Assembly (NCBI RefSeq): GCF_017876815.1
Contig: NZ_JAGIOS010000003.1
Location: 390,001 to 422,000, forward strand
Source: Sinorhizobium meliloti
GTDB lineage: Bacteria; Pseudomonadota; Alphaproteobacteria; Rhizobiales; Rhizobiaceae
DNA: 32,000 nt
Direction of reading: 5' to 3'
Shown: in pieces, positions 3,938-21,404 of the stretch
How positions within the stretch are numbered: the stretch's first letter is position 1
Layout of the letters: every line of letters starts with the position of its first letter
The notes under the pieces: generated by a model
What the model was told of the DNA's origin: nothing
Databases searched by the model: none
What the model saw: the letters and a program-made list of their open reading frames with translations, nothing else
Made by a program: the position numbers and the translations under genes

Positions 3938-3938
3938 G

Positions 3939-4796: not shown

Positions 4797-4812
4797 CAGA
4801 GAGTAGGAATCC

Positions 4813-5562
4813 ATGAAAATACTTGTGACGGTGAAACGGGTGGTCGACTACAACGTCAAGATCCGGGTCAAAGCGGATGGATCGGGCGTCGAGCTTGCCA
4901 ATGTGAAGATGTCGATGAACCCGTTCGACGAGATCTCGGTCGAAGAGGCGCTGCGGCTGAAGGAAGCCGGCAAGGCGAGTGAAGTGGTGGTCGTGTCGAT
5001 CGGCCCGGCCAAGGCGGAAGAGACGCTCAGGACCGCGCTCGCCATGGGCGCCGACCGGGCGATCCTGGTCGAGACCGAGGACCAGGTCGAGCCGCTCGCC
5101 GTCGCCAAGATCGTCAAGGGCGTGGCCGAGGCCGAACAGCCGGGGCTGATCATCGTCGGCAAGCAGGCGATCGACGACGATTCCAACCAGACCGGCCAGA
5201 TGCTGTCGGCATTGCTTGGCTGGGCCCAGGGCACCTTTGCCTCCAAGGTCGAGATCGGCGACGGCAAGGTCAACGTCACCCGCGAGGTCGGCGGCGGCCT
5301 GCAGACGGTCGAACTGAAGCTGCCGGCGGTGGTCACCACCGATCTCAGGCTCAACGAACCGCGCTATGCCTCGCTGCCGAACATCATGAAGGCGAAGAAG
5401 AAGCCGCTCGACAAGAAGACCCCGGCCGACTTCTGCGTCGACACCAGCCCGCGGCTGAAAGTCTTGAAGACGGAAGAGCCGTCCGGCCGCAAGGCCGGCG
5501 TCAAGGTGAAGACGGTCGCCGAGCTCGTCGAGAAGCTCAAGACCGAAGCCGGCGTGCTTTAA
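4813..5562 (+). CDS. etfB: electron transfer flavoprotein subunit beta
   Basis: [53 protein letters not shown]... is a near-canonical EtfB sequence. An AGGAA RBS is present. Confidence 0.95.
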
Positions 5563-5585
5563 GTTCAGGAAAGGGAGATATCATC

Positions 5586-6515
5586 ATGGCTATTCTGCTT
5601 CTGGCTGACCACGACAACAGCCACCTTTCCGACCAGACGGCGAAGGCACTGACGGCGGCAGCGAAGATCGGCGGCGACGTGCATGTGCTGGTTGCCGGTC
5701 AGAACGTCAAAGGCATCGCCGAACAAGCCTCCAAGCTCTCGGGCGTTGCCAAGGTGCTGGTCGCCGAGGACGCCTCGCTCGCTAACAATCTCGCCGAGCC
5801 GCTGGCGGCCCTGATCGTTTCGCTCGCCGGCAATTACGACACCGTTATTGCCGCCGCCACCTCGGTCGGCAAGAACGTCATGCCGCGGGTCGCAGCCCTT
5901 CTCGACGTCGCCCAGGTTTCGGAGATCATCGAGGTCGTCTCGGCTGACACGTACCGGCGGCCGATCTATGCCGGCAACGCCATCCAGACGGTGCAGACGA
6001 GCGAGCCGAAGAAGGTGATCACCGTGCGCACCGCCTCCTTTGCCGCCGCTCAAGAAGGCGGCTCGGCACCGGTCGAGACGGTTGCCGCCGCGGCGAATCC
6101 GGGCCTTTCCGCCCATGTTTCCGATGCCCTGTCGTCCTCCGACCGGCCGGAACTGACCTCGGCGAAGATCATCATCTCCGGCGGTCGGGCGCTCGGCTCC
6201 TCGGAGAAGTTCAAGGAAGTCATCCTGCCGGTTGCCGACAAGCTCGGCGCCGCCGTCGGCGCCTCCCGCGCCGCCGTCGATGCCGGCTATGCGCCGAACG
6301 ACTGGCAGGTCGGCCAGACCGGCAAGGTGGTCGCCCCGGACCTCTACATCGCCTGCGGCATTTCCGGTGCGATCCAGCACCTCGCCGGCATGAAGGACAG
6401 CAAGGTGATCGTCGCCATCAACAAGGACGAGGAAGCGCCGATCTTCCAGGTCGCCGACTACGGCCTCGTCGCCGATCTCTTCGAAGTCCTGCCGGAACTC
6501 GAAAAGGCGCTTTGA
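5586..6515 (+). CDS. etfA: electron transfer flavoprotein subunit alpha
   Basis: 309 aa. The C-terminal FAD-binding block is [74 protein letters not shown] is present. Confidence 0.95.
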
Positions 6516-6530: not shown

Positions 6531-7445
6531 TCAGGATCTGCCGGAGAGCTCGAACTGGCAGTGGCTGAAGAAGGCCCGGACGGTCTCGTTGTCCTTCAGG
6601 AAGTGCGCCGTCCCGAAATAGATGGGAACAGGCGTGAGGCTCAGCAGCTCCACCCGGGTTATCGTGTCGTCGTCCGGTCCGACGGACCAGGTAGGCAATA
6701 TGGAAAAGCCGAGGCCTTCGCTGACATAGCGCTTGATGCTGACGCTTGACGAAACCGAGATCAGCGGCTCGACGACCGCACCCTTGCTGCTGAGGAAACC
6801 GGTGGCAATGTCCCTTATTATCTGTCCCGGTTCATGCGAAACGAAAGGACGACCGCAGGCCCATTCGGGAATATCTCCCTCGGCGGGAGCGGGTCCCCAG
6901 GTTCGGGGATAGACGAGCGAAAGGCTGTAGCGGCCGATCAACTGCTGGATCACGACGGAGTCGCCAAAGTGCCGCTCCGCAATGAATATGTCGAGGCTGC
7001 CCTGGCGGACCAGGTCGGACAGGGCGGTGTCACGCTCGTAGACGACAAGCTCCACGTCAGGGCGGCTTTCATGGAATTTCCGGACGACCCTGGGAAAGAG
7101 ATCATGGAAGATTCCCTGCGGCATGCCGATCCGCAGCACCGGACGCTGGCTCTCCATCAGTCGCGTCAGACGTGTCAGCATGATGTCGAATTCCGGGCGG
7201 ATCAACTCGTAAAGCGCAAGTCCCCGCGGTGTCAGTCCCACGCGCCGTGCCCCGCGCTCGGCAACGACCAGCCGCTCGCCGAGGAGGTGTTCCAGCCGCC
7301 GGATATGGTTCGCCACGGATGGATGGCTGAGATTGAGCTCCCGGGCCGCAGCGGAATAGGAGCCGGTCCGTCCGAGTTGGTAGAACGTCTGGACAAGTGA
7401 GAGGCTGATGCTGGGCAAGTGGCGGTTCCTGCGGCTCGTGGGCAT
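6531..7445 (-). CDS. LysR family transcriptional regulator
   Basis: The N-terminal HTH is [45 protein letters not shown], followed by a LysR substrate-binding-type C-terminus. ATG 7445 (MPTSRRN...) is preferred over the TTG at 7502 used in the track. Convergent with etfA, with a 15 bp spacer. Confidence 0.9.
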
Positions 7446-7607
7446 TCGCGCCGAGGACGTTACGGTGAGCAGGGGCAGGGCCGCAAGGCGCAGCTTCGGC
7501 AAGTTGTAAGTTTTTTCATAACTCGTGCCCTTGTTCTTTTATCGACGCGGTTTTGCCGGGCGCGCTACGATCTGTCCCGAGACCTCCTTGCAAGGCGTTC
7601 AGATCAG
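7446..7607. promoter_or_regulatory. divergent promoter/operator region between the LysR gene and the oxidase-amidase-transporter operon
   Basis: This is the only AT-rich patch nearby (GTTGTAAGTTTTTTCATAACTCGTGCCCTTGTTCTTTTATCGAC, about 7503-7546). It contains ATAA (7518-7521) ... TTAT (7539-7542) and similar GTT-T-rich half repeats. I could not define a clean T-N11-A LysR box. Confidence 0.3.
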
Positions 7608-8777
7608 GTGCGCGAGCAGCATTCTTCACCACCAGTCATTGTGATAGGCGCGGGCATTGTCGGCGCCGCGACCGCGTCGTTTCTCGCGCTCGCGGGTACG
7701 CCAGTTCGGCTGCTCGACGCTTCGACGCCGGCCAGCGGGGCGACCGGCGCTGCAGATGGTGCGGTGTCGGTGGCGAGCAAGCGCCCGGGTCCGATGATGA
7801 CGATGGCCCGGGCCGGAGCGGCGCTTTATCGCGAACTCGCCGAGGAGGGGTTGTTCCAAGGCCTCTTCCACAGGCGGCCCACCTTCCTCGTTGCGACGAG
7901 CGATGCGGAAGCCGACGTCCTTTCCGACCACTCGGAAGCTCTCGCCGAGGTCGGTGCGCCGGTGCTTTGGCTCACCCGGGATATGGCTGCAGACAGATTG
8001 GCCCCGCTCTCCCGAAAGACGGTGGCAGTGCTTGAAGTCGAAGACGAGGGGCACGCGATCGGCTACAGCATAGTTTCGCGTCTGATTTCCGCCGCAGGGT
8101 TGAAGGTGGAGCGCAATTCCCCCGTTGCGGCGCTGGAATACGACGGACGATCCGGCCGCGTCAGCGGCGTTCGTGTCGGGGAAGCGGTGATCGAAGCCTC
8201 GGCGGTGGTCGTCGCCGCAGGTGGCGGCGCGGGCGGGCTTATAGGACTTCCCGATGTGTCGCGTCCACGTAGGGGGCAGCAACTGGTGACCGAGCGGGCA
8301 CCCACCCTGAATGCCGCCCTGCCGGGGTCGCTTCTCTCCTGCAGCTATCTCCTCAGCAAGAAGCAAGGGGGCGATGCGGATCAGCGCGGATATGGCGTCG
8401 TCATCGACCCGCTCGAAACCGGCCAGTTCCTGATCGGCTCGACACGGGAGGAGGGCCGCAACATCCCTGAAAATGATATCGACGCGGTGGCTCACCTGGC
8501 GGCCTCCGCTGGGGACATGGTGCCCGCGCTAGGGCGCTTGCGCATCCTTCGGTGCTTCGCCGGAATCCGCACTGCGATATGCGATGGCCTGCCGATGGTC
8601 GGCAGGATGCCCGGTGTCGACAATCTTTTCGTCGCAGCCGGGTTTGAAGGAGACGGCATCTGCCTTGGTCCGCTGACTGGCCGGATCGTGGCGGATCTTG
8701 TTCGGGGGGAGGAGCCGGAAATCGATGTTTCGCCGTTCGATCCGGGCCGGTTCGCCGGTAGGAGCATCGCGGCATGA
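7608..8777 (+). CDS. FAD-dependent oxidoreductase, HcnC / opine oxidase subunit B (OoxB)-like
   Basis: Track ORF 7419-8777. The dinucleotide fold VIVIGAGIVGAATASFLALAG begins 9 codons after in-frame GTG 7608. The family-typical C-terminus is GFEGDGICLGPLTGRIVADLV. The start position is uncertain. Confidence 0.8.
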   Translation: MREQHSSPPVIVIGAGIVGAATASFLALAGTPVRLLDASTPASGATGAADGAVSVASKRPGPMMTMARAGAALYRELAEEGLFQGLFHRRPTFLVATSDAEADVLSDHSEALAEVGAPVLWLTRDMAADRLAPLSRKTVAVLEVEDEGHAIGYSIVSRLISAAGLKVERNSPVAALEYDGRSGRVSGVRVGEAVIEASAVVVAAGGGAGGLIGLPDVSRPRRGQQLVTERAPTLNAALPGSLLSCSYLLSKKQGGDADQRGYGVVIDPLETGQFLIGSTREEGRNIPENDIDAVAHLAASAGDMVPALGRLRILRCFAGIRTAICDGLPMVGRMPGVDNLFVAAGFEGDGICLGPLTGRIVADLVRGEEPEIDVSPFDPGRFAGRSIAA

Positions 8778-9031
8778 CGGCCGTCCGGACTTTTTTCTGG
8801 CGGGGCTCCGAGGTGCCGTTCCGAGCAGGCGAAAGCATTGCAGCCGCCCTTGCCGGTTCGAACATCCATGGATTCGGAAAGGATCCTGCCGGGTCACCAA
8901 CCCGGTATTTCTGCGGCATCGGTGCCTGTCAATCTTGCCTCGTCCGTGTGGATGGGCGCGCAACCGAGGCCTGCCTCGACCCGGTCTATGACGGAATGGT
9001 CGTGATGGCGCTGGAGGATGACGATGCGTGA
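8774..9031 (+). CDS. (2Fe-2S)-binding protein, HcnA-like small subunit
   Basis: 85 aa. The Cys cluster is YFCGIGACQSCLVRVDGRATEACL. ATGA start/stop overlap with the upstream gene (8774-8777). Confidence 0.8.
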   Translation: MTAVRTFFWRGSEVPFRAGESIAAALAGSNIHGFGKDPAGSPTRYFCGIGACQSCLVRVDGRATEACLDPVYDGMVVMALEDDDA

Positions 9032-10376
9032 GGCCGACATCATCGTCGTCGGCGGTGGACCGGCCGGCGTGTCGGCGGCGATCGAAGCCGCGAAATCGGG
9101 GCTCTCGGTGATGCTTTGCGAGCAGAGGCCGGCGCTCGGCGGCGCCATCCATCGCCAGCCGGCCGAAGGCGCAACCCCCGTTGCCGTCTTACCGTCACTT
9201 AGGGGCCGCTGGCAGGCCCTGTCTGCGGAGCTTTCCGCCTCGGGCGTGGATGTTCGGACGCGCCGCGCATTCGTCGGCGTCGACAGCACAGGCGCCGTGT
9301 TGATCGAAGACCGGGCAGCTGGCAAGGTCGAAGTACGCCGGCCGCGCGCCTTGATTTTAAGCTGCGGGGCCGTGGAGCGGGTAAGACCGCGTCGGGGCTG
9401 GCATTTGCCCGGCGTCGCCGCGGCAGGCGGTCTCCAGGTGATGCTGAAGGAGGGCCGCGTGCCTGGGGGACGCATCCTGCTTGCGGGGAGCGGCCCGCTG
9501 CTGCTCGCTTTGGCCGCACAAATGACGGCAGCCGGCAATCCGCCCGTGGCCGTCATCGAGGAGGGAGACCCTGCTTCGCGGCCCCTGGCAGGTGTCCGTC
9601 TGCTGGCTCATCCATCCATCCTTCCGGACATGGCTGCCCTGATGATGCCTGTCCTCTTCCGCCGCGTCGTGTGGCGCCGCGGCACGCGCCTGACGGAGAT
9701 CACCCAATCCGGCGATATGCTCACCGCGTGCCTCATCGCGCCAAACGGGCGGGAGGAGCGGATCGAGGTCGACCGCATCGGTCTCCATGACGGGCTGCGT
9801 CCGAACGATTTCGGCCTGCCGGCCAATGATGCCGCGGCAGGCCTCGTCATCCTGCGGGCCGGAGATGTGCGCGAAGTGCTCGGCGCGCACGCCGCCGAGG
9901 CGGATGGAGCCGAAGCGGGCCGCGAAGCTGCGGCACGGCTGGCAGGGCGCCCGCCGCGCAGTGGCGCGAACGGGATTCGACGCCTGCGCTCTCTGCAGAC
10001 CAGCCTTTCCCGCCTTTTCGCGCCCGTCCACGGTGCGCCGATCCTGGACGATTGTCCCGGAGACACGGTGATCTGTCGTTGCGAGAACCGGACGATCAGC
10101 CATCTGAAAGCACAATTGTCGGGGCCGGACACCGTTTCAGCACGAGAATTGCGGCTCAACGGACGGTTCGGCATGGGCGCCTGCCAGGGGCGCTTCTGCT
10201 CCGAATGGACGCTTTCACTGATGTCCGAACTGCGCCCCACAGCCTCTCCGTCAAGTATCGCCGAAATGGGCGCTTGCCGTTGGCCGTTGCGGCCCGTAGC
10301 TCTGTCGTCGCTCGCAAAAGGTGGCACGAACGCCGACACACTGACAGAACCGCATATGGAGGAGATCTCGGCATGA
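9024..10376 (+). CDS. FAD/NAD(P)-binding oxidoreductase with C-terminal BFD-like [2Fe-2S] motif, HcnB / opine oxidase subunit A (OoxA)-like
   Basis: ADIIVVGGGPAGVSAAIEAAKSG, then a second Rossmann-like ILLAGSGPLLLALAAQ. C-terminal VICRCENRT...GMGACQGRFC. ATG 9024 has GGAGGA 6 nt upstream; the track uses ATG 9018. Overlaps the upstream stop at 9029-9031. Confidence 0.8.
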   Translation: MREADIIVVGGGPAGVSAAIEAAKSGLSVMLCEQRPALGGAIHRQPAEGATPVAVLPSLRGRWQALSAELSASGVDVRTRRAFVGVDSTGAVLIEDRAAGKVEVRRPRALILSCGAVERVRPRRGWHLPGVAAAGGLQVMLKEGRVPGGRILLAGSGPLLLALAAQMTAAGNPPVAVIEEGDPASRPLAGVRLLAHPSILPDMAALMMPVLFRRVVWRRGTRLTEITQSGDMLTACLIAPNGREERIEVDRIGLHDGLRPNDFGLPANDAAAGLVILRAGDVREVLGAHAAEADGAEAGREAAARLAGRPPRSGANGIRRLRSLQTSLSRLFAPVHGAPILDDCPGDTVICRCENRTISHLKAQLSGPDTVSARELRLNGRFGMGACQGRFCSEWTLSLMSELRPTASPSSIAEMGACRWPLRPVALSSLAKGGTNADTLTEPHMEEISA

Positions 10377-10476
10377 CGCTGCAGGCCCGTTGAGGAAAGG
10401 GTTGCCGCCGCGAGCTTCGCTTTTACCCTTACGATCGAGGATGCAAAACAAAAATTCCAATAAGAGGGGTACACAG

Positions 10477-11952
10477 ATGAACACAAGAATACTGGGTTTG
10501 GCCGCCGGCCTCGCCGTCCTGTTCGCGTCCACATCTTGGGCGCAGTCGATCACCGTAGCGATCGGCTCGGAGCCTTCGACCCTCGATCCCCAACTCCGCG
10601 ATGACGGGGGTGAGCGACAGGTCAACGACAATATTTATGAAGCGCTGATGGCGCGCACTGCGACTGGCGATCTCGTGCCGGGCCTTGCCGCAGATGCGCC
10701 GACACAGGTGGATGCCAGGACCTGGCAGTTCAAGCTGCGTGAAGGCATCAAGTTCCACAACGGCGAGCCATTCAACGCCGATGCCGTCGTCGCTTCGGTG
10801 CTGCGGGTGATAGATCCGGCGAACAATTCGGAGCAGATGGCCTATCTTGGTCCGCTTTCAGGAGCCGAAAAAGTCGATGACCTGACTGTCCGCATCATCA
10901 CATCCGCCCCCGACCCGATCCTGCCGGCCCGGATGTATTGGCTGAAGATGGTCCCTGCCGCCTACTCGAAGAACGCGACCGCCATCGCGGAGAAGCCGGT
11001 CGGAACCGGCCCCTACAAGTTCGGCACCTGGGACCGCGGGAACAGTATCACAATGACGGCCAACACCGATTACTGGGGTGGGGAGCCGCAGATCGATGAT
11101 GTGACCTACCGCTTCGTGAGCGAGGCAGGCACGCGGCTATCGGGGTTGGTCGCCGGTGAATTTGACGTCGTCGTCAATCTGCTTCCCGAATTTGCCGACT
11201 CCGTGCCTCAGGCAAAGTCGGTAAGCGGCCTCGAGACATCGGTCATCATTCTCGGCGTGGACAATCCGGCCGTGAAGGATGTGCGAGTGCGCCGGGCGCT
11301 CAACATGGCAATTGATCGGCACGCCCTTGCGGAAAGCCTGTTTGCCGGCAACGCGAAGGTAACAAAGGGACAGCTCGTCCTGCCGGGCGCCTTCGGCTAC
11401 AACGAGAGTCTGGAAAACTGGCCTTACGATCCACAGGGTGCGAAGAAGCTGATCGCGGAAGCGGGCGCGGCCGGAACGACGATCGATCTCGTCGGCGAGG
11501 CGGGGCGCTGGCTGAAGGACCGGGAGCTGGTCGAGGCGGTTGCCGCGTATTGGACCGAGGTCGGACTGAAGGTGAATGTCGAGATCCTCGAATTCTCGGT
11601 GTATCTCGACCGCATCTTCGACATGGGCAACCGGCCCGACAGCTACTTTGTCCTCAACTCGAACGAGCTTTTTGACGCCGACCGTGAAATGGCCTTCGCT
11701 TACGAACCGGGCCAGGGCGGTGCCTCGAACAGCGACAAGGCCCTCGGCGAGGCCATCCGTGCAGCACGTTCGGAAGTCGACGTGGAAAAACGCAAGGCCG
11801 CCTATGCCGTGATCACGAAGAAGCTGCACGACGAAGCCTATGACGTCCCGCTTCTGAACCATCAGGACATTTACGGCATGTCCGAAAAGATGGAATGGCA
11901 GCCGCGGGTGGATTCAAAGATTATTGTCAGGGAAATGAAGGTCAATGAGTGA
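10477..11952 (+). CDS. ABC transporter substrate-binding protein, family 5 (peptide/opine/nickel type), copy 1
   Basis: The signal peptide is MNTRILGLAAGLAVLFASTSWAQ, followed by SITVAIGSEPSTLDPQ... ATG 10477 is preceded by AAGAGGGG; the track ORF starts earlier, at 10390. Confidence 0.9.
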   Translation: MNTRILGLAAGLAVLFASTSWAQSITVAIGSEPSTLDPQLRDDGGERQVNDNIYEALMARTATGDLVPGLAADAPTQVDARTWQFKLREGIKFHNGEPFNADAVVASVLRVIDPANNSEQMAYLGPLSGAEKVDDLTVRIITSAPDPILPARMYWLKMVPAAYSKNATAIAEKPVGTGPYKFGTWDRGNSITMTANTDYWGGEPQIDDVTYRFVSEAGTRLSGLVAGEFDVVVNLLPEFADSVPQAKSVSGLETSVIILGVDNPAVKDVRVRRALNMAIDRHALAESLFAGNAKVTKGQLVLPGAFGYNESLENWPYDPQGAKKLIAEAGAAGTTIDLVGEAGRWLKDRELVEAVAAYWTEVGLKVNVEILEFSVYLDRIFDMGNRPDSYFVLNSNELFDADREMAFAYEPGQGGASNSDKALGEAIRAARSEVDVEKRKAAYAVITKKLHDEAYDVPLLNHQDIYGMSEKMEWQPRVDSKIIVREMKVNE

Positions 11953-12124
11953 CGCTGGCAAAATCGAGGCGCAGTTGAGGGCGATTGCGAAGGTCAGGCT
12001 GCCTCATGGGGCTTCTGAGGAAGAGATCGCGGATTTTGTTCGAGGCCTCGTCATACTCGATGACGTGACGTTGCGGGCGCGTCGCGTGGCCGAAAGGCTA
12101 GCCCAGGACGAGATGCAGCCATGA
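11945..12124 (+). CDS. small hypothetical protein (59 aa), possible GatC/AtzG-like partner of the downstream amidase
   Basis: Below the ORF-track size cutoff. Sequence: MSDAGKIEAQLRAIAKVRLPHGASEEEIADFVRGLVILDDVTLRARRVAERLAQDEMQP. Its ATG overlaps the binding-protein stop (ATGAGTGA, 11945-11952). Its stop overlaps the amidase ATG (ATGA, 12121-12124). A purine-rich AGGGAAATGAAGG lies upstream. By my count about two thirds of third codon positions are G/C. Confidence 0.5.
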   Translation: MSDAGKIEAQLRAIAKVRLPHGASEEEIADFVRGLVILDDVTLRARRVAERLAQDEMQP

Positions 12125-13536
12125 CCGCGCTTGAAAACCTGTCGATCAGGAAACTTGCGGCGATGGTCCGGGCACGTGAGATCTCCGCCGTTGATGTGAC
12201 AACCCATTTCCTTGGCCGAATCGTGGCCTACGACGATGCACTTTGCGGGTTCAACGTGCCGGCACCGGAAGCAGCTCTGGACGCCGCACACGATCTCGAT
12301 ACGTATCTGAATGCAGGAGGCGAGGCGGGGGCGCTTGCCGGCATACCGCTCTCCATCAAAGATATAGCCGATGTTGCCGGGCTTCCCTCTGCGGGGGCCT
12401 CGGCGTCACGGTCAGGGCGCACGGCCACTGCCGATGCGACTGTCGTTGCCCGTATGAAGGCGGCGGGTGGGATCGTGCTAGGCAAGGCGAACTGCCACGA
12501 GCTTGCCTTCGGCGGCCCGTCTTTCGATCTGCCTTTCCCGCCTGCCCGCAATCCCTGGAATCTTGACCGCTTTCCCGGTGGCTCGTCGAGCGGATCCGGC
12601 GTCACCGTCGCTGCCGGCCTCTGTCTCGGATCGCTGGCGACCGACACGGCCGGTTCGATCCGGCTTCCGGCCACGATGTGTGGCGTCTTCGGCCTGAAGC
12701 CCGGTCACGATACGCTGCCGCTCGACGGTATCGCTGTCCTCGCGGCCACGATGGACCATGTGGGCCCGGTCGCCCGGACCGCCGATGATACCCGCATCCT
12801 GTTCGACGTCATGGCAGGCCGCAGCCCCGGTTCACCCTTCGTCGAATCGCTAAAAGGTCTTCGGATCGGCGTCCCGGAGAATGAATGGGATGTTGGACGG
12901 CTGATACATCCCGATGTGCGGGCGGCTATCGACGGCGCCATCGAAGTCGCCCGGTCTGAAGGCGCAGACATCGTGCCGCTCCGGCTTCCTTCGCTGGAGG
13001 ATTTCCACGCCCCGGGCACCGTTCTCATGATGTGCGAGGTTGCTGCGGAGCATGCCGCTTCCGTCCGTGCGGCCTGGGACAAGTTCGGCGCGATATTCCG
13101 GGCTCGCGCACTTGTCGGTGAGGGGATAGCGGTTCATGACTTCCGACTGGCCGAACGTCTGCGCCCTGTTTTGAGGAAGAGGCTCTTGGACGCTATGTCG
13201 AACGTCGATTGCCTGCTGGTCCCCGGCGCACTCGCGCCGCCCGGGCCGCTTGCGTCGGTCGACCCCTTCTATTTCATGAAGGACCCCATTCCGAATATCG
13301 TCGCCAATTATACTGGCTTTCCCGCTCTCGCCTTTCCGGCAGGTTTTGGCGGCGACGGGATGCCGGTCGGAGTGCAGATCATGGGGGTGCCGCGCTCCGA
13401 GCATCGGCTGCTCGACATTGCCGAGAGCTTCGAAAGGGCTGATCCATCGCGGTTTGCGGCCAGGACGCCTCCGGGACTGGAAGGCCGGCCCGAGCCTTGC
13501 CTGTTCAAACTAGAACTTCCGGCTCGAGCCATGTGA
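12121..13536 (+). CDS. amidase (amidase-signature family, GatA/AtzE-like)
   Basis: PLSIKDI (catalytic Lys), GGSSSGSGVTVAAG (AS signature) and DTAGSIRLPA (nucleophile Ser). 471 aa. Confidence 0.9.
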   Translation: MTALENLSIRKLAAMVRAREISAVDVTTHFLGRIVAYDDALCGFNVPAPEAALDAAHDLDTYLNAGGEAGALAGIPLSIKDIADVAGLPSAGASASRSGRTATADATVVARMKAAGGIVLGKANCHELAFGGPSFDLPFPPARNPWNLDRFPGGSSSGSGVTVAAGLCLGSLATDTAGSIRLPATMCGVFGLKPGHDTLPLDGIAVLAATMDHVGPVARTADDTRILFDVMAGRSPGSPFVESLKGLRIGVPENEWDVGRLIHPDVRAAIDGAIEVARSEGADIVPLRLPSLEDFHAPGTVLMMCEVAAEHAASVRAAWDKFGAIFRARALVGEGIAVHDFRLAERLRPVLRKRLLDAMSNVDCLLVPGALAPPGPLASVDPFYFMKDPIPNIVANYTGFPALAFPAGFGGDGMPVGVQIMGVPRSEHRLLDIAESFERADPSRFAARTPPGLEGRPEPCLFKLELPARAM

Positions 13537-13564
13537 TATCTGAACAAAAAACAGGGGAACTTGG

Positions 13565-15049
13565 ATGAAGAAGATACAGAGACTGACTGCCGGCATCGTG
13601 ATGTTGCTCGCGTCGACACTTGCCGCATCGGCAGCATGGGCACAATCCATCACCATCGCCATCGGGTCGGAGCCTTCGACGCTCGATCCGCAGCTTAGGG
13701 ATGACGGCGGCGAGCGACAGGTCAACGACAACATCTATGAGACGCTGATGGCAAGGACGCCGACCGGCGAACTCGTGCCGGGTCTGGCCGCGCAGCCTCC
13801 GAAGCAGGTCGACGCCACGACCTGGCAGTTCAAATTGCGGGACGGCGTCAAGTTCCACAATGGCGAACCTTTCAATGCCGATGCCGTGGTTGCATCCGTC
13901 TCGCGGGTCATCGATCCTGCCAACAATTCCGAACAGATGGCGTATTTCGGTACGATCAAGACGGCCGAAAAGGTCGATGACCTGACAGTCAACCTCGTCA
14001 CCACAGGCCCGGATCCGATCCTGCCGTCGCGCATGTACTGGATGAAGATGATCGCGCCCGGCTATGCCAAGGACGGCGATCTTGCCGGTGCGCCGGTCGG
14101 AACCGGCCCGTACAAGTTCGACAGCTGGAACCGCGGGACGGACCTGAAGCTCGTTGCAAACGCGGACTACTGGGGCGGGGAACCGCAGATCGACGACGTC
14201 ACCTACCGCTTCGTGACGGAGCCGGGCACGCGCCTTTCCGGCCTGCTTTCCGGCGAATTCGACGTGATCACAAACCTCCTGCCGGAGTTCACGACAAATG
14301 TGCCGAAGTTCGCTGCCGTTCCCGGCCTCGAGACGTCGGTCTTCGTTCTGGGCACGGACAACGAAGTTACGAAGGACCCGAAGGTGCGCGAGGCGCTCAA
14401 TCTCGCCATCGACCGCAAGGCCATGGCCGAGGGCCTGTTCATGGGCTATGCGACCCTCGCCAAAGGGTCGCACATCAATCCGGCAGCCTTCGGCTTCAAC
14501 GAAAAGCTGGAGCACTATCCCCATGACATCGAGAAGGCGCGGGCGCTGATCAAGGAGGCAGGGGCCGAGGGCAAGCCTCTCGTGGTCGTCGGCGAATCCG
14601 GCCGCTGGCTGAAGGACCGTGAGCAGATCGAAGCGGTCGCGGGTTACTGGGCCGAGACCGGGCTGAACGTCACGACCGACATCCAGGAATTCTCGCAGTA
14701 CCTCGACAGCCTGATGGGCGACGGGCCGCGTCCCGACGCGATCTTCATCGCCAATTCCAACGAACTGCTCGATGCCGACCGGGAAATGTCCTTCATCTAC
14801 CACAAGGACGGTGCAGCGGCATCGAACTCGGATGCCGAAATGGCCACCATGATCGAGGCGGCACGCGTCGAAACGGATACTGCAAAACGCAAGGCGCTTT
14901 ATGACGATATCCAGAAGAAGGGCCACGACCTGAACTACACCGTCCCGCTGTTCAATCTCCAGGACATCTACGGAATGTCGGAACGCATGGAATGGCAGCC
15001 ACGTGTCGACGCGAAGTTGATGGTGAGCGAAATGAAGGTAACCGAATAG
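13565..15049 (+). CDS. ABC transporter substrate-binding protein, family 5, copy 2 (paralog of 10477-11952)
   Basis: The signal peptide is MKKIQRLTAGIVMLLASTLAASAAWAQ. It is collinear with copy 1 along its whole length, with long identical blocks such as GSEPSTLDPQLRDDGGERQVNDNIYE. Confidence 0.9.
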   Translation: MKKIQRLTAGIVMLLASTLAASAAWAQSITIAIGSEPSTLDPQLRDDGGERQVNDNIYETLMARTPTGELVPGLAAQPPKQVDATTWQFKLRDGVKFHNGEPFNADAVVASVSRVIDPANNSEQMAYFGTIKTAEKVDDLTVNLVTTGPDPILPSRMYWMKMIAPGYAKDGDLAGAPVGTGPYKFDSWNRGTDLKLVANADYWGGEPQIDDVTYRFVTEPGTRLSGLLSGEFDVITNLLPEFTTNVPKFAAVPGLETSVFVLGTDNEVTKDPKVREALNLAIDRKAMAEGLFMGYATLAKGSHINPAAFGFNEKLEHYPHDIEKARALIKEAGAEGKPLVVVGESGRWLKDREQIEAVAGYWAETGLNVTTDIQEFSQYLDSLMGDGPRPDAIFIANSNELLDADREMSFIYHKDGAAASNSDAEMATMIEAARVETDTAKRKALYDDIQKKGHDLNYTVPLFNLQDIYGMSERMEWQPRVDAKLMVSEMKVTE

Positions 15050-15072
15050 CGTCGTCCGCAGGTGGATTAACT

Positions 15073-15099
15073 CTTGCCGCGGACCTGTTCTGCGGCAAG
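15073..15099 (+). terminator. intra-operon stem-loop after the second binding-protein gene (possible attenuator or mRNA stabiliser)
   Basis: Perfect 8 bp stem CTTGCCGC (15073-15080) / GCGGCAAG (15092-15099) with an 11 nt loop. There is no U-tract, so it is not a classical intrinsic terminator. Confidence 0.3.
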
Positions 15100-15127
15100 G
15101 GTCGCCCCGACCAAAGGAATGCCTCAT

Positions 15128-16048
15128 ATGCTGGAATTCATCCTCCGCCGCCTGTTCCAGGGCGTGCTCGTCGTCTTCGGGGTGACAGCGACCGTCTTCG
15201 TCGTGACCCGACTGGTGGGCGATCCGGTTGCGCTGATGCTTCCGCTCAGCGCAACGGAGGCGCAAAGGGCTGCCTTTGCCCAGCAGATCGGCCTGGACCA
15301 GCCGATCGCCACGCAGTTCCTGCGTTTCGTCGGGGACATCGCCACACTGGATTTCGGAAACAGCCTCTGGCAGCGTCGCCCTGCGATCGAAGTCGTGTTC
15401 GAGCGCTTGCCGAACACGCTGCTGTTGATCGCGGCAGGGCTTGGAGCCGCAGTCATGCTTTCGATACCGCTGGGCGCCGTTTCGGCTCTGCGTCCGGGCG
15501 GACTGGTCGATCGGCTGACCATGTCGGTCGGCCTTCTCGGGCTCGCGATGCCGCAATTCTGGCTCGGTCTCGTCGCCATCATGATCTTTGCGGTCACGCT
15601 GAGATGGCTGCCGACCTCCGGCATGGGCACGGCCGCTCACCTTGTTCTTCCAGCCCTTACGCTCGCCCTGACGCCGCTTGCGCGCTTCACGATGATGGTG
15701 CGCGCGTCAATGATCGACGAACTCAACAAGCCCTATGTCAAGACGGCAAGGGCAAAGGGCCTCGGGCTAACGCGTATTCTGCGCGTCCATACCTTACGCA
15801 ACATCCTGGTTCCCTTTCTCTCTATCTCCGGATGGGAACTGATTGCCACTCTCTCCGGCTATACGGTTGTGGTCGAAACGGTGTTCGCGTGGCCGGGGCT
15901 GGGCCTGACGGCCGTGCAGGCGATCCAGCGGGGCGACCTGTTTCTGATGCAGGCCATCGTCTTCGTCATCGCTTTCCTGATCGTCTTGATCGGCATCGCG
16001 CTCGACATCCTGTCGAAGGCGGTGGATCCGAGGATGGAATTGAACTGA
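15128..16048 (+). CDS. ABC transporter permease (DppB/OppB-like)
   Basis: MLEFILRRLFQGVLVVFGVTATVFVVTRLVGDPV... is the typical N-terminus. AAGGA lies 9 nt upstream of ATG 15128; the track ORF starts at 15074. Confidence 0.9.
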   Translation: MLEFILRRLFQGVLVVFGVTATVFVVTRLVGDPVALMLPLSATEAQRAAFAQQIGLDQPIATQFLRFVGDIATLDFGNSLWQRRPAIEVVFERLPNTLLLIAAGLGAAVMLSIPLGAVSALRPGGLVDRLTMSVGLLGLAMPQFWLGLVAIMIFAVTLRWLPTSGMGTAAHLVLPALTLALTPLARFTMMVRASMIDELNKPYVKTARAKGLGLTRILRVHTLRNILVPFLSISGWELIATLSGYTVVVETVFAWPGLGLTAVQAIQRGDLFLMQAIVFVIAFLIVLIGIALDILSKAVDPRMELN

Positions 16049-17007
16049 TGGCCGCTTCCGCTTCCGCCGCTTCACCCACTCCTGTCGGCACGCGCGTGCC
16101 GCGCGGAAGGATATCGGAGCTCTGGCACGACAAGACCGCCGCCATCGGCCTCGCCCTCATCCTGCTCATCGTGTTCCTGGCCCTGTTCGCTCCGCTCATC
16201 GCACCTTACGATCCGGCCGCGCAGTCGATCATGGCACGGCTGAAGCCGCCGGTCTGGATGGAGCGCGGTACCTGGGAACACTTGCTCGGAACCGATAATC
16301 TCGGCCGCGACGTCCTGTCCCGCATCATCTGGGGTGCGAGGGCGACGCTGACGATCGGCGCCGTCACCTGCCTTCTGGCGGCGACACTGGGGACCGTCAT
16401 CGGCCTTTGGGCAGGCTTCATGGGAGGACGCACGGACTCGATCCTGATGCGTCTGGTCGACATTCAGGTGAGCTTCCCGGGCATACTTCTCATCCTCCTC
16501 GTCGTCGCGGTTCTGGGGCCAGGCGTCTGGACGCTTGTTGCGGTCCTGTCGGTGACGAACTGGATGGTCTATGCCCGGCTCGTGCGCGGCATCGTCTCGT
16601 CGACCCGTCAGACCCCTTACGTCGAAGCAGCCGAAGTGATCGGCTGTCGTCCTGCAAGGGTCATCTTCAGGCATATCCTGCCGAACATCGTCTCGCCGCT
16701 GATGACGCTCGCGATCCTGGAGTTCACCAATATCGTGCTGGCGGAAGCAGCGGTGTCGTTTCTCGGCTTCGGCGTTCAGCCTCCGGCGACGTCATGGGGG
16801 CTCGACGTCGCCTCGGGACGGGACTACCTGTTCATCGCGTGGTGGCTCGTGACCTTTCCGGGCCTTGCGATCGTCGTGACAGTGCTGTCCATCAATCTCT
16901 TCGCCAACTGGTTGCGGGTAACGACCGACCCCGAGGAACGGGAGAAACGCTTTGCGCGCGCCGAGGCGGCCAGGCGGCGGCGCGGGCGACGGAGGGCGGA
17001 AGCATGA
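16048..17007 (+). CDS. ABC transporter permease (DppC/OppC-like)
   Basis: The last 319 codons of track ORF 14992-17007. The real start is MAASASAASPTPV... at ATG 16048, overlapping the upstream stop (TGATG). LFAPLIAPYDP and later blocks are family-typical. The C-terminal tail is Arg-rich. Confidence 0.9.
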   Translation: MAASASAASPTPVGTRVPRGRISELWHDKTAAIGLALILLIVFLALFAPLIAPYDPAAQSIMARLKPPVWMERGTWEHLLGTDNLGRDVLSRIIWGARATLTIGAVTCLLAATLGTVIGLWAGFMGGRTDSILMRLVDIQVSFPGILLILLVVAVLGPGVWTLVAVLSVTNWMVYARLVRGIVSSTRQTPYVEAAEVIGCRPARVIFRHILPNIVSPLMTLAILEFTNIVLAEAAVSFLGFGVQPPATSWGLDVASGRDYLFIAWWLVTFPGLAIVVTVLSINLFANWLRVTTDPEEREKRFARAEAARRRRGRRRAEA

Positions 17008-17990
17008 CCATGCCTCTGCTCGAGATCGACAACCTGCATGTCTGTTTCGATACGCGCGCCGGGACCGTCCAGGCCCTGCGCGGGGTGTCCCTGACCGTCG
17101 CACCGGGCGAAACGCTCGGCATCGTCGGCGAATCCGGATCCGGCAAAAGCGTGACGGCACAGGCGGTCATGGGCCTGATCGACGTCCCGGGGCGCATCTC
17201 GGACGGTGAGATTCTCTGGGAGGGAAAGCCGCTCGCCGGGTTCGATGTCGCCAATGCTGCGCGCGATATCTGGGGCAGGGAGATCACGATGATCTTTCAG
17301 AACCCAATGACATCGCTCAATCCGCTGATGACGGTGGGGGCGCAAATCGCCGAGGTGATCGAGGTTCACATGGGATCCAGCAGGCGAGCGGCGCGACGTC
17401 GGGCGGCGGAATTGCTTTCGGCAGTCGGCATCTCCGGGGCGGAGCGGAGGCTCGATCAGTATCCGCACGAGTTTTCCGGCGGCATGCGACAGCGTGTCAT
17501 GATTGCCATGGGAATCGCCTGCGAGCCCAAGCTCCTGATCGCCGACGAACCGACAACGGCCCTGGACGTAACGATCCAGGCCCAGATTCTGGAGCTTCTG
17601 GCGGAGTTGCAGGAGAAGATGGGGTTGGCGATCGTTCTGATCACCCATGACCTCGGCATCGTCGCAGGCCTCTGTCACCGCGTCGCCGTCATGTATGCGG
17701 GGCAGATCGTCGAAACCGGTCCGGTGGATGCGATTTTCGAGAATCCATCGCATCCCTATACGCAGGGCCTGATCCGCTCGACACCAGGCCTCGATGCCGA
17801 CGAGGAGCGGCTGACGGCGATAGACGGAGCTCCGCCGGGGCTGTTGCAGCCGCCTTCCGGCTGCGCTTTCCTGCCTCGCTGTCCGATTGGCGACGAGGGT
17901 TGCCAGGGGCCTCAAGTTCTCCGTGCGGTCGGTGCGGGCACAGTGGCCTGCCGCAAGGCCGGCGAACAGGCATGGAGGGAGGCAGTATGA
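17004..17990 (+). CDS. ABC transporter ATP-binding protein (DppD/OppD-like)
   Basis: [13 protein letters not shown]..., Walker A GESGSGKS, signature FSGGMRQR, Walker [13 protein letters not shown]. The oligopeptide-type C-terminus is HPYTQGL...[12 protein letters not shown] overlap at 17004-17007. Confidence 0.9.
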
Positions 17991-18970
17991 CGGTCGCCCC
18001 CGTGCTTTCGGTTTCCGGCCTCGCCATCGATTACGAACTCTCGTCCGGCGGACTTTTCCGCAAACGCCGGAGCGTCAATGCCGTCAGCGATGTGAGCTTC
18101 GACCTGGCACCGGGCGAAACGCTTGGTCTTGTAGGCGAATCCGGCTCCGGCAAGACGACCGTCGGCCGTGCGGTGCTCCGCCGCATTCCCGCTGCGCAAG
18201 GCAGGATTGTCTTCGGCGGCGAGGACATTACCCATCTCGGTGGCGAGCCGCTGCGACGCCTGCGTGCGCGCATGCAGATCGTCCTGCAGGATCCCTATAC
18301 GTCGCTCAATCCGCGCATGAAGGTCTCGAGCATCGTAGCGGAACCGCTTATCGTCCACGGCCTCGCCGCTTCCGCAGAGGAGGCGCGTGCCGCCGTTGCC
18401 GAATTGCTGGAGCGCGTGGGACTGCCCGGCGATGCCGCCGACCGCTATCCGCACAGCTTTTCCGGCGGACAGCGCCAGCGGATCGGCATCGCCAGGGCCC
18501 TGGCGCTGAAGCCCGCGCTCATTGTGGCTGACGAGCCTGTCTCCGCCCTCGACGTCTCGGTGCGGGCTCAGGTCGTCAATCTTATGCAGGACCTGCAGCG
18601 CGATCTCGGAATATCCTATCTCTTCATCGCGCATGATCTCGCGATCGTGCGGCACATCTCTCACCGGGTGGCGATCATGTATGCGGGGAGGATCGTCGAG
18701 ATCGCGCCGCGCGACGCCATCTACCAGCGGCCTATCCATCCCTATACAGAGGCATTGCTGTCTGCGGTTCCGGTCGCCAATCCGAAGCTCCAGCGCGCCC
18801 GGAGGCGCATCGTGCCTCCGGGCGAGTCCGTCGATATCGCCAGTCCGCCGACCGGCTGCCGCTTCCATCCGCGCTGCCCGCTTGCGACCGACCGGTGCCG
18901 CGAAGAGGCTCCGCAGCTCCTGCGCAAGACCGGCGATCACTTTGCCGCCTGCTGGAATCGTCACGCATGA
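17987..18970 (+). CDS. ABC transporter ATP-binding protein (DppF/OppF-like)
   Basis: [18 protein letters not shown]..., [41 protein letters not shown]...[21 protein letters not shown] is present. ATGA overlap at 17987-17990. Confidence 0.9.
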
Positions 18971-19695
18971 TGGAATTGTTGATCAGCCCTCAGGGGATAG
19001 CCGCGGCCGTTGCGCTCATTCTTGCCGGCGCGGTTCAGGGTTCCACCGGTTTCGGGTTCAACATGCTCGCAGCGCCGATGCTCGCCATCATCGATCCCGC
19101 CTTCGTACCGGGCCCGATGCTGGCAATGGCGATAGCCGTGAGCGCCGGCGGTACGGTTCGGGAATGGAGCGACGTCAACCGGCAGGACCTTGCCTTCTCC
19201 CTGACCGGACGCCTGCTGGCGGCAGGGGCGGCCGCGTTCTGCCTGCAATTGCTAAGCCCAGATGCCTTCGCGGCCGTATTCGGCTTCGGCGTGCTCTTCG
19301 CCGTGGCGCTCAGCCTTGCGGGGCTGAGGATCGACACGACGCGCAGTTCGCTCTTTCTCGCCGGTGTCCTTTCGGGGTTCATGGGCACCTTGACCTCGAT
19401 CGGGGCTCCGCCAATGGCCATGGTTTATCAGAATACCGGCGGCGCACGCATGCGTGCGACCCTGAACGCCTTCTTCGTCGTCGGTGGCATCATCTCGATC
19501 GGAGCGCTTTTCGTCGCCGGCAGTTTCGGCCTCTCCGATCTCCTTCTTGCCGCCACCATGCTCCCCTTCGCCTTCCTCGGCTTCCTGCTGTCGGGCTGGG
19601 GACGACGACTCGTCGACCGAGGGCATGTGAAAGTCATCGTCCTCATCGTGTCGGCGGCTTCAGCTCTTGTTCTGCTTTTGCGCGCATTTTCATGA
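18967..19695 (+). CDS. TauE/SafE (TSUP, DUF81) family membrane protein
   Basis: [42 protein letters not shown]... The protein is polytopic and Gly/Ala-rich, 242 aa. ATGA overlap with the ATPase stop at 18967-18970. Confidence 0.8.
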
Positions 19696-19702
19696 GGATG
19701 CA

Positions 19703-20461
19703 ATGACAGACGCACCAAGAATTCTCATTACCGGTGCTGGCAGCGGAATCGGCGCCGCAATCGCGCGGCGCATCGCGACGCCCGGCATGCGGCTTTTCTT
19801 GCACACGGGCGCGAATGCGGAAGGACTAAGGACAGTCGCGAAGGAGGTGAGCGCAAGAGGCGCCGAGGTTGCCACGGAACTCGGAGATCTGTCCGATCCG
19901 ACCGTTCCCGGACATCTCGTCCAGGCGGCGCGTGCAGCCTTCGGCGGGCTCGACCAGATCGTTTCGAATGCCGGCCGCGCGCAGCGATCTTCGTTCGGTC
20001 AACTGACGGACGCAGACCTGCAGACCGCGTTCGACATGATGCCGATGGCCTTTTTCCGGCTGGTCGACGCCGCTCTGCCGGACCTGAGAACATCCATGCA
20101 GGGGCGAGTGGTCGCCGTCAGTTCCTTCGTCGCCCACGGCTTTGGAACGAATGGGATGCATTTTCCCGCATCCGGTGCCGCCAAGGCTGCGTTGGAGGCT
20201 CTAGCCAAATCGCTTGCTGCCCAGCTCGCGCCGGTGGGTGTGACGGTAAACTGCGTCGCACCCGGCTTCACGCGCAAGGACACCGGAGGCCATGCCGCGA
20301 CTTCATCAGCAGCAATGGAAAGCGCACGTGCGGTGACACCGAATGGCAGGCTCGGCGAGCCGATCGACGTGGCAGAATTGGTCGCCTTCCTTCTGTCACC
20401 CGGAGCACGCCATATCACAGGGCAGGTCATGCATGTGGACGGCGGACTGCTGCTGGCATAG
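19703..20461 (+). CDS. SDR family oxidoreductase with non-canonical active-site motif
   Basis: [17 protein letters not shown] (TGxxxGxG) and SNAG are present. Where YxxxK is expected the sequence reads [12 protein letters not shown], with no Tyr four residues before the Lys. ATG 19703 lies 7 nt after the TauE stop. Confidence 0.85.
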
Positions 20462-20599: not shown

Positions 20600-20925
20600 A
20601 CTTTAGATTCGCGTTTTGACAACCGGCCGACCCTCCGATCGGACGACCGACGGCCTTCAGGCACAGATCCTGGAACTCCTGCGGGACCTACAGCGCGAGA
20701 CCGGCATGGCTCAGATCATGATCACCCATGATCTCGAGGTCGCCGCGGCCATGGCGGATGATCGGATCATCGTACTGAACGGCGGCAAGGTGGTGGAGAG
20801 CGGCAAGGCCGAGGACGTCTTTACCAATCCGAGCCACGCCTATACCCGCCGGCTGATGTCGGCCGTGCCCCATGCCGACGCGCCGAAAGCGCCTCGGAAT
20901 GCCGCACAAGGCGAGGTCCTGTTAG
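20600..20925 (+). pseudogene. 5'-truncated fragment of an oligopeptide-type ABC ATPase (end of a first nucleotide-binding domain plus linker)
   Basis: Track ORF 20616-20990 reads ...[90 protein letters not shown]. There is no Walker A or signature motif upstream. The Walker B region (about 20620-20660) is recognisable only with indels. Confidence 0.6.
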
Positions 20926-21081
20926 CATGCGTGCAATGCTGGATTTGCCCGAACCGGACTCGCCGACGATTTCCCCACGACGAAGCGTGAAACTGACATC
21001 GTCCACGGCCCTGAACTCCCGCTTGGGCGAGAACGGGCCGGACCCCAGCTTGTAATGCTTGCTCAAATGGGCGACCTGCAA
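20926..21081 (-). pseudogene. inverted fragment encoding the N-terminus and Walker A of an ABC ATPase domain
   Basis: The minus strand reads [53 protein letters not shown]. Homology is then lost exactly where the plus-strand fragment ends. Confidence 0.6.
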
Positions 21082-21099: not shown

Positions 21100-21404
21100 A
21101 TACGCTCTGTTGCCGCAATCACGGCCGATGCTTGCGCAAACGGGCCCAAACATCCGATCGATGTAGCACAACACTCAAGTGAGTGTCCTTAAGGCGGCGG
21201 TCCACGTCAACGAGGAGATCGTCAGCGCTGCACGTCGTCTGCTTTTCCGAAAGCGGCCGGCCTGACCGGATTGCCGGAACTCGAGAGCTTGTCATCCCGA
21301 GGACGCCTTATCTTGCAGCCTACATGATGCTGGCAGATATGATTCGGATTCTGCGTGTCCTACATGGCGCCCAGATGTCGCCCAGCGAGTTCGAAGACGA
21401 GTAG
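21100..21404 (+). pseudogene. frameshifted, probably 5'-truncated ParE/RelE-family toxin remnant
   Basis: The C-terminal frame reads SGRPDRIAGTRELVIPRTPYLAAYMMLADMIRILRVLHGAQMSP, a ParE-type tail. The preceding segments KAAVHVNEEIVSAARRLL and PIDVAQHSSECP lie in two other frames. No antitoxin ORF lies upstream. Confidence 0.45.

Follow-up and report, generated by a model that had tools for sequence, protein, structure and literature searches.

A three-module, LysR-linked operon on a pSymA-type megaplasmid of Sinorhizobium meliloti, with a candidate small amidase partner

Gene content and organization

The window considered here, a stretch of 32,000 nucleotides, derives from the pSymA-type megaplasmid of Sinorhizobium meliloti. 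Between positions 6531 and 20461 it holds a gene for a LysR-family regulator and, divergent from it, a row of thirteen cistrons that may constitute a catabolic operon of three modules, comprising a heterooligomeric flavoenzyme, an amidase with a small neighbor and a receptor, and a Dpp-type importer. Strains RU11/001 and SM11 have this segment with 100% identity, and pSymA of strain 1021 (751181–765112, reversed) has it with 99.6%; the same 14 genes, including one that encodes only 59 amino acids, are present in the PGAP annotation of CP140953 (pSymA, 99.9% identical).

The lysR gene (6531–7445, minus strand; Pfam HTH_1 and LysR_substrate) is read here from an ATG, where PGAP picks a TTG start at 7418. 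On the plus strand, the open reading frame (ORF) listing and its translations give thirteen cistrons, g1 to g13, between 7608 and 20461; the domain content of their products was read from Pfam and NCBIfam model searches. The first three encode the beta, gamma and alpha subunits of the flavoenzyme: g1 (7608–8777; Pfam DAO) is FAD-dependent and resembles HcnC, OdhB and LhpB, g2 (8774–9031; Fer2_4) is a [2Fe-2S] ferredoxin-like protein resembling HcnA and OdhC, and g3 (9024–10376; Pyr_redox_2 and FAD_oxidored) resembles HcnB, OdhA and NoxA. They are followed by periplasmic binding protein 1, of cluster C and the Dpp/Opp type (g4, 10477–11952; SBP_bac_5), by the 59-aa protein (g5, 11945–12124), which has no family match and is proposed from its position to be the non-catalytic partner of an amidase, and by that amidase-signature enzyme itself (g6, 12121–13536; Amidase). 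Periplasmic binding protein 2 (g7, 13565–15049; SBP_bac_5) precedes two DppB/DppC-type permeases (g8, 15128–16048, with BPD_transp_1 and BPD_transp_1_N; g9, 16048–17007, with BPD_transp_1 and OppC_N) and two DppD/DppF-type ATPases (g10, 17004–17990, and g11, 17987–18970, each with ABC_tran and oligo_HPY). The row ends with a TauE/SafE (DUF81) family membrane protein (g12, 18967–19695; TauE) and a short-chain dehydrogenase/reductase (SDR) that lacks the catalytic Tyr (g13, 19703–20461; adh_short_C2).

Eight of the twelve junctions overlap, by 4, 8, 8, 4, 1, 4, 4 and 4 nt in gene order, the single-nucleotide overlap being the TGATG at 16046–16050 between g8 and g9; the other four are gaps of 100, 28, 78 and 7 nt. 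An earlier note, made from the sequence alone, had described thirteen same-strand cistrons with eight overlaps and four gaps, and the ORF listing reproduces this layout exactly. The divergent LysR gene that it placed upstream is indeed there, and its naming of the components (HcnCAB-like enzyme, amidase with a small partner, twin Dpp receptors, TauE, atypical SDR) holds throughout.

Conservation and modularity of the block

At the DNA level, 143 records match the block, and 59 plasmid records cover at least 80% of the query; all of these that were inspected are from Sinorhizobium, and the other matches are short stretches of ATP-binding cassette (ABC) ATPase genes. The block is present in nearly all of the S. 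meliloti and S. medicae plasmids examined. At the protein level, the 14 genes from lysR to the SDR gene are syntenic in S. medicae (locus L003) and in a Shinella sp. (L004), with unrelated flanks. Because the complete block is kept in these two genomes amid different surroundings, it acts as a discrete conserved unit across genera, and the comparison of gene neighborhoods thus bears out the single block that the earlier note had drawn.

Within this unit, three modules can be told apart. Module A consists of lysR and the beta-gamma-alpha genes (g1–g3), module B of binding protein 1 (g4), g5 and the amidase (g6), and module C of binding protein 2 (g7), the ABC translocator (g8–g11), TauE (g12) and the Tyr-less SDR (g13). 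Plasmid pM103b of Sinorhizobium sp. M103 (L088) carries an A+C form from which binding protein 1, g5 and the amidase, and nothing else, are missing, the gene order being lysR, beta-gamma-alpha, binding protein 2, ABC, TauE and SDR. Its shared DNA is 94.5% identical to the S. meliloti block. The absent stretch, of about 3.2 kb, corresponds to approximately 10340–13507 of the window (the hcnB tail, binding protein 1, g5 and the amidase), with the junction at L088 6858–6880, and the HcnB-like gene of pM103b finishes in codons that are homologous, in the same frame, to those at the 3' end of the amidase gene in S. meliloti. Since S. medicae also carries module B, its absence from M103 is most simply explained by an in-frame deletion in the M103 lineage. 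The same 10-cistron arrangement is found on a plasmid of Rhizobium sp. WL3 (L092; junction at 12763–12802), where the beta subunit is 71% identical to g1. In both A+C operons a g7 orthologue is the sole receptor. A recombination chimera of binding proteins 1 and 2 was considered for the M103 receptor and ruled out, the protein being a uniform orthologue of binding protein 2. Orthologues of lysR hold the same position in S. medicae, Shinella, M103 and WL3.

The complementary arrangement also occurs. Pelagibacterium lacus (L005) and Paenirhodobacter (L006) have B+C sets without the beta-gamma-alpha enzyme, in the order binding protein, small ORF, amidase, binding protein and ABC, with TauE and with or without the SDR; the oxidoreductase beside the set is a DadA-like DAO protein in the former and a flavin amine oxidase in the latter. 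Amidases 38–57% identical to g6 are encoded in Aminobacter, a Hyphomicrobiales genome, Shinella pollutisoli, Paracoccus denitrificans, an Alcaligenaceae genome and two metagenome-assembled genomes. At all of these loci a small ORF overlaps the amidase start, and at most of them a DAO-type oxidoreductase and an ABC importer adjoin. A DadA-like DAO gene adjoins the g5-amidase pair in Pelagibacterium, Aminobacter, the Hyphomicrobiales genome, S. pollutisoli and the Alcaligenaceae genome. Loci of this kind frequently have the Dpp-type ABC genes, TauE and the Tyr-less SDR as well, the last two being present at the Aminobacter and Hyphomicrobiales loci (L083/L084).

Because the A+C operons lack only module B, the oxidoreductase and the importer would appear to work without the amidase; and because binding protein 1, g5 and the amidase are absent together in M103 and WL3, the extra receptor appears to travel with the amidase. 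On this reading, A+C would be a self-sufficient import-and-oxidize pathway, and B a cassette supplying de-amidation together with a second receptor. Similarly, the B+C sets can be read to mean that the amidase product has repeatedly been fed to whichever flavin amine or amino-acid oxidoreductase the host provides. The three steps that the earlier note had put forward, namely uptake, amide hydrolysis and C–N oxidation, are supported by these natural A+C and B+C variants.

In one S. meliloti strain (CP050559.1, 1511957–1527197), the IS4-like element ISRm16 splits the block, which matches in two pieces over 15.2 kb.

The flavoenzyme and the amidase

The products of g1–g3 follow the domain order DAO, Fer2_4 and Pyr_redox_2. 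In g1 (Pfam DAO, E 1e-53) there is an N-terminal VIGAGIVGAA motif; g2 has four Cys, at residues 47, 52, 55 and 67; and g3 has the N-terminal ADP-binding motif VVGGGPAGVSAA and a C-terminal cysteine motif, CRCE...GACQGRFC, that aligns with NoxA. The nearest solved relatives of g1 are glycine oxidase and the beta subunit of PH1363/1y56. By gene order and cofactor motifs, which are the marks of the group, g1–g3 is a member of the family of heterooligomeric flavoproteins that includes HcnABC, D-hydroxyproline dehydrogenase (D-HypDH) and opine dehydrogenase (OpnDH). The beta-gamma-alpha order, sizes and motifs are those described by Watanabe et al. for PpOdhB-C-A, D-hydroxyproline dehydrogenase and the hydrogen cyanide synthase family (PMC4575208). 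The likeness to PpOdhB-C-A, NoxB-gamma-NoxA, OoxB-OoxA, LhpBEF and HcnABC lies in the tandem of a DAO-type beta subunit, a gamma subunit with a 4-Cys [2Fe-2S] site and an alpha subunit with a dinucleotide fold and Cys cluster (PMC4575208).

Beta subunits about 55% identical to g1 form a large group in the Rhizobiaceae and their relatives, with another cluster context. There, lysR and the beta-gamma-alpha genes are accompanied by an aldehyde dehydrogenase, DapB-like and DapA-like proteins, a polar-amino-acid ABC importer and a saccharopine-dehydrogenase-like protein. Examples are found in Polymorphum gilvum (L093, 10001–18635), whose DapA-like protein scores above the dapA cut-off, and in Rhizobium petrolearium (L094). 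As far as could be told, this cluster is also uncharacterized.

The g6 protein is a member of the amidase signature (AS) superfamily by its Pfam match (PF01425, E 1e-88, 298 bits against a cut-off of 27) and its motifs, SIKD at 78, GGSSSG at 153 and DTAGSIR at 175. From these motifs, we take K80, S155 and S179 to be the Lys, cis-Ser and Ser of the putative triad. The protein stays below every NCBIfam equivalog cut-off: 270 bits against 532 for IaaH, 245 against 461 for AtzE (NF006631), 229 against 426 for the AtzE model TIGR02715, and 223 against 481 for GatA (TIGR00132). It matches the solved AtzE structure (PDB 6c62_A) with an E value of 2e-40, more weakly than it matches GatA, and is 32% identical to IaaH of pTiC58. 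A pSymA gene annotated 'amidase', CDO30_RS22005, is one of the candidate loci at which allelic differences alter the fitness of strains in nad1 mutants of Medicago truncatula, in a selection study on host mutants (PMC12904279); this gene could not be mapped to g6.

The 4-nt overlap of g5 with the start of g6 recalls the coupled upstream ORFs of GatCA and AtzE/AtzG, and it is conserved: nine further genomes (L003–L006, L083–L086 and L089) have a small ORF of the g5 family that runs into the start of the amidase gene. In L090 and L091 a small ORF also overlaps the amidase start, with a sequence that differs from the g5 family. None was seen at L007, where the amidase is 39% identical; only ATG starts were scanned there, so that this is not evidence of absence. 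The small partner proposed in the earlier note fits the recurrence of this coupled ORF and the purifying selection described below.

By sequence, g5 stands apart. There is no match to it in Pfam (even at E values up to 5), in NCBIfam or in the PDB, by phmmer and profile searches. When 1.84 billion representative proteins were searched exhaustively with HMMER, the matches were its own cluster, one likely relative (P0215) and repeat-protein noise, and a word-based search returned Sinorhizobium relatives only. As a control, the small ORFs beside more distant amidases in the locus set proved to be true GatC or PF13318 matches, seven of the nine matching PF13318.

Two known pairs are instructive. 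AtzG is non-catalytic, AtzE is insoluble without it, and the AtzEG pair is thought to derive from GatCA (PMC6219798). With AtzG-AtzE and GatC-GatA, the present pair shares a GatA/AtzE-related amidase coupled to a preceding ORF of about 60 aa, and like the atzG-atzE-atzH clusters it lies with a LysR gene and ABC transporter genes in a cluster that is probably devoted to the breakdown of nitrogen compounds (PMC6219798). It differs from AtzG-AtzE in that g5 does not match PF13318 (AtzG-like), g6 is under the AtzE cut-off and there is no AtzH gene, and from GatCAB in that g6 is under the GatA cut-off, g5 is not GatC-like and the block has no GatB gene. Because g5 sits at the equivalent position before a GatA/AtzE-like amidase, the role of AtzG is proposed for it.

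The importer, TauE and the SDR

With two BPD_transp_1 permeases, two oligo_HPY ATPases and SBP_bac_5 receptors, g7–g11 together with g4 form a Dpp/Opp-type importer. The receptors g4 (SBP_bac_5, E 1e-77; signal peptide ending STSWA/QS) and g7 are paralogues, 65% identical, and both have signal peptides. Their closest solved counterparts, all similarly distant, are a structure whose ligand is unknown, GsiB, DppA, AccA and AgaA. The set resembles multi-receptor Dpp/Opp importers, such as those of DppA, GsiB and Agrobacterium AccA, AgaA and MoaA, in its SBP_bac_5 receptors, two permeases and two oligo_HPY ATPases; unlike those, it has 65% identical receptors that are split by an amidase pair, one of them being gained or lost with the amidase.

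The Pfam TauE match of g12 (PF01925) reaches 78.6 bits against a cut-off of 32.6, and no NCBIfam model matches it. A TauE gene also lies beside the amidase module in L005, L006, L083 and L084. The g13 protein retains the cofactor motif TGAGSGIG, the Ser and the Lys; HFPASGAAK stands in place of NYxxxK, with no Tyr in the region, so that the protein lacks the Ser-Tyr-Lys set and YxxxK of a classical SDR. Relative to FabG, there is presumably a 3-residue insertion in this region. The loss of the Tyr is common to all six other aligned sequences of the clade, including that of Aminobacter, and the 'atypical SDR' of the earlier note was aptly named.

Regulatory and RNA elements

Three segments of the lysR–g1 intergenic region are invariant across S. 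meliloti, S. medicae and Shinella, and adjoining positions are variable. They delimit a footprint at 7500–7572 that is a candidate LysR operator with promoter elements, as judged from the alignment of the three genera. It begins with the invariant segment CAAGTTGTAAGTTTTTT (7500–7516) and ends with the invariant segment CGCGCTACGATC (7561–7572); a dyad, TAAC-N10-GTTC (7519–7536), is reported inside the segment GTTCTTTTATCGACGC (7533–7548). Presumably, the LysR protein controls the operon from here, and the 13 cistrons would be read as a single transcript. No NCBIfam equivalog reached its cut-off for the regulator itself. A scan of the sequence for consensus promoters and terminators gave nothing above shuffled controls, the consensus being that of sigma-70, which may miss rhizobial promoters, and there were no Rfam matches in the window.

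Between g7 and g8 the sequence can fold into a stable hairpin with a 14-bp stem (15071–15101, plus strand; folding energy -36 kcal/mol, z = -3.5). The stem is kept in S. medicae, M103 and WL3, with a compensatory U–A to C–G change, and no U-tract follows it. Conserved hairpins without a U-tract are typical of elements that raise receptor mRNA over downstream genes. This one is probably a barrier to mRNA decay, through which more receptor than translocator would be made.

A proposed pathway

How might these parts work together? The operon would operate like a LysR import-and-oxidize operon of the noc/occ type fused to an AtzG/AtzE-like amidase pair. The likeness to the noc/occ regions consists in the divergent LysR gene and the adjacent ABC importer. 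Compared with nox/noc of pTiC58, identity here is only 30–35%, two receptors serve an importer of the Dpp/Opp type in place of NocPTQM, there is an additional amidase module, and arginase and OCD are missing. No OccQMPJ- or NocPTQM-type importer and no arginase or OCD gene was found in the block. The occ/noc parallel drawn in the earlier note is therefore right as to the LysR gene and the oxidase family and does not extend to the type of importer, which is not the polar-amino-acid one. The note also drew a parallel with mannityl-opine loci, whose importers are Dpp-like.

The reading preferred here, which we regard as about evenly poised between right and wrong, is a LysR-regulated, three-module catabolic operon for an amino-acid-derived compound that is met in carboxylate and amide forms. 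The substrate class, the allocation of ligands to receptors, the g5–g6 complex and the roles of g12 and g13 are what we infer from the gene content and its variants. The natural variants suggest that the ligands of the two receptors are one scaffold in its amide form and in its acid form. In the periplasm, g7 would take the acid form and g4 the amide form, and the shared Dpp-type translocator g8–g11 would import both. In the cytoplasm, g6 would hydrolyze the amide form, with g5 as a stabilizing non-catalytic subunit comparable to GatC of GatC-GatA and AtzG of AtzG-AtzE. The membrane-associated g1–g3 enzyme, carrying FAD, probably FMN, and a [2Fe-2S] cluster, would then oxidize the C–N bond of an N-substituted, D- or cyclic amino acid and pass the electrons to the respiratory chain. 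Finally, the Tyr-less SDR g13 and the TauE-family protein g12 may process or export the product.

Several points weigh against this scheme. The 100- and 78-nt gaps could hold internal promoters. The two receptors could bind unrelated ligands or be redundant. TauE and the Tyr-less SDR have no assigned chemistry in it. The role of g5 as the non-catalytic subunit of g6 is proposed from position and analogy: hhalign gives a probability of 1% against GatC and of 4–8% against an alignment of verified AtzG-like ORFs, and Foldseek finds no significant link with the AlphaFold2 (AF2) model of g5. The literature search found no substrate, induction or expression data for the locus. The earlier note had not recognized the gene set as a characterized pathway; likewise, no characterized homologue of the locus and no paper on it was found in literature searched by topic and by guessed SMa locus tags.

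What is the substrate?

One answer, unlikely but a serious one, is that the operon degrades a D- or cyclic amino acid of the proline, hydroxyproline, pipecolate or diamino-acid type that is supplied as an amide or in short peptides. The amidase would free the amino acid, g1–g3, acting like D-hydroxyproline dehydrogenase, would make a cyclic imine from it, and the SDR would handle the imine or keto product. Close homologues of g1 are named 'D-hydroxyproline dehydrogenase subunit beta' in some sources, but these names are automated. In the neighborhoods of related loci, a proline-racemase-family gene lies in L086, DadA-like DAO and DapB-like genes in L005, and genes resembling those for an OCD/mu-crystallin Pyr2C reductase and for alpha-ketoglutarate-semialdehyde dehydrogenase in L083/L084, and the orthologue group about 55% identical to g1 adjoins aldehyde dehydrogenase, DapB-like and DapA-like genes. 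However, the NCBIfam matches of these neighbors are below the cut-offs, with two exceptions that reach generic biosynthetic dapA/dapB models only (a DapA-like protein in L093 and a DapB-like one in L005), and the block in the window has no epimerase, deaminase or semialdehyde dehydrogenase. The context of the 55% group points to D-, cyclic or N-carboxyalkyl amino-acid chemistry, and the proline-racemase-family, OCD/mu-crystallin and DapB-like neighbors of related amidase modules point the same way; none of this fixes the substrate.

The earlier note had looked to opines instead. The compound imported, along with its acid form, would be an opine that carries an amide (mannopine, heliopine/vitopine or succinamopine type); once the amide is hydrolyzed, an opine dehydrogenase would cleave the secondary amine. 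A divergent LysR gene, an enzyme of the Oox/Nox/Odh family with the same beta-gamma-alpha order (PMC4575208) and an acid/amide twin-receptor logic that suits opine pairs all fit this idea. Set against it are the identities to the Nox enzyme of pTiC58, 30% for g1 to NoxB (over about half its length), 35% for g2 to the gamma subunit and 31% for g3 to NoxA (full length), which are no closer than expected across the subfamilies; orthology to the type 1 opine dehydrogenases (Nox/Oox/PpOdh), assessed here by pairwise identity, does not emerge from them. The solved structures that come closer to the binding protein include the opine receptors AccA and AgaA, but these score no better than GsiB or DppA. 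The block has no opine synthase and no OCD- or arginase-type gene, and related loci have amino-acid-type rather than opine-type neighbors (proline-racemase, OCD/mu-crystallin, DadA-like and DapB-like proteins), which favor D- or cyclic amino-acid chemistry at least as much as opines. The hosts of S. meliloti are not known to produce such opines. The opine identity is not supported by these results and is considered improbable.

The small protein g5 and its possible wider meaning

The scheme of an amide-and-acid pathway gives g5 a role as a protein. Could g5 instead be a coupling or leader ORF that merely delivers ribosomes to the amidase start, or even an annotation artefact? It is short, has no detectable homology to known families and is conserved less well than any other gene of the block (74% identity in S. 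medicae, against 84–97% for its neighbors). However, its dN/dS ratio against S. medicae and Shinella is about 0.22, close to the 0.14–0.20 of the amidase, and its GC content at third codon positions (GC3) is typical of coding sequence. A motif, LP..AS..E..F.rGl.ILdd, persists in the g5 family down to 18–34% identity, across families and orders, and the AF2 model is a confident helix-loop-helix (pLDDT 87). By these measures g5 is under purifying selection and is a genuine protein-coding gene, and a leader ORF or artefact is quite improbable.

It is very unlikely that the target is an organosulfonate conjugate (an N-acyl or gamma-glutamyl taurine-type amide, or a tauropine-like opine) from which TauE exports a sulfite or sulfonate product: a TauE/SafE gene accompanies the amidase module in six examined loci, a GGT gene occurs in the Aminobacter loci and ALS-like thiamine pyrophosphate (TPP) enzymes occur in L005 and L085, but the block in the window has no desulfonating enzyme, and TauE/DUF81 proteins are widespread and mostly without a known substrate. 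The TPP enzymes beside related amidases were also considered as sulfoacetaldehyde acetyltransferase (Xsc) and rejected, with 233 bits in that model against a cut-off of 620.

The preferred reading, an amino-acid-derived compound degraded in its carboxylate and amide forms, invites a further step that can be put forward only tentatively. In this extension, g5 would represent a third family of obligate small subunits for GatA-derived amidases, beside GatC and AtzG; the cassette of receptor, chaperone subunit and amidase would extend an acid pathway to the amide; and the compound degraded, either opine-like or a cyclic amino acid, would come from plants or the rhizosphere and be of relevance to symbionts of Medicago. 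If true, g5 would carry over to a new sequence family the principle seen in GatC and AtzG, in which an amidase keeps a vestigial subunit for the sake of its solubility. Its role would help to annotate a small gene that is represented from very few other genomes in the protein collections searched. What is new here is an uncharacterized catabolic operon of modular build, whose amidase has a putative small partner of an undescribed kind; no paradigm is broken. The pSymA-type megaplasmids carry many orphan catabolic operons, which may shape fitness in the rhizosphere and the nodule, and the natural A+C and A+B+C variants offer a ready genetic contrast for finding the ligand pair.

Flanking genes and minor observations

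On the lysR side, a plus-strand cluster at 847–6515 encodes an acyl-CoA dehydrogenase, an SDR, a DUF993 protein (named 'dihydrodipicolinate synthase family' by NCBI), a xylose-isomerase-like TIM barrel, EtfB and EtfA. It ends 15 nt from the lysR stop, convergent with lysR. Membership of this etfBA/acyl-CoA dehydrogenase cluster in the operon was considered and excluded; the cluster is convergent with lysR and does not lie beside the block in S. medicae or Shinella. The gene table that PLSDB gives for CP140953 lacks the gene of this cluster at 3939–4796.

On the other side, a 1.2-kb stretch 3' of the operon contains the C-terminal piece of an Opp/Dpp-type ABC ATPase, without its N-terminal, Walker A part (20616–20990), and a fragment that by eye resembles a ParE/RelE-like toxin (21183–21404). 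These remnants are probably pseudogenes that mark the end of the block.

An unusual oxygenase-like set was seen in L083/L084, where 4074–5904 encodes a CADD/PqqC-like protein (TENA_THI-4 / Haem_oxygenase_2) and two plant-type ferredoxins; these loci also carry GGT, an aldehyde dehydrogenase and an OCD/mu-crystallin gene.

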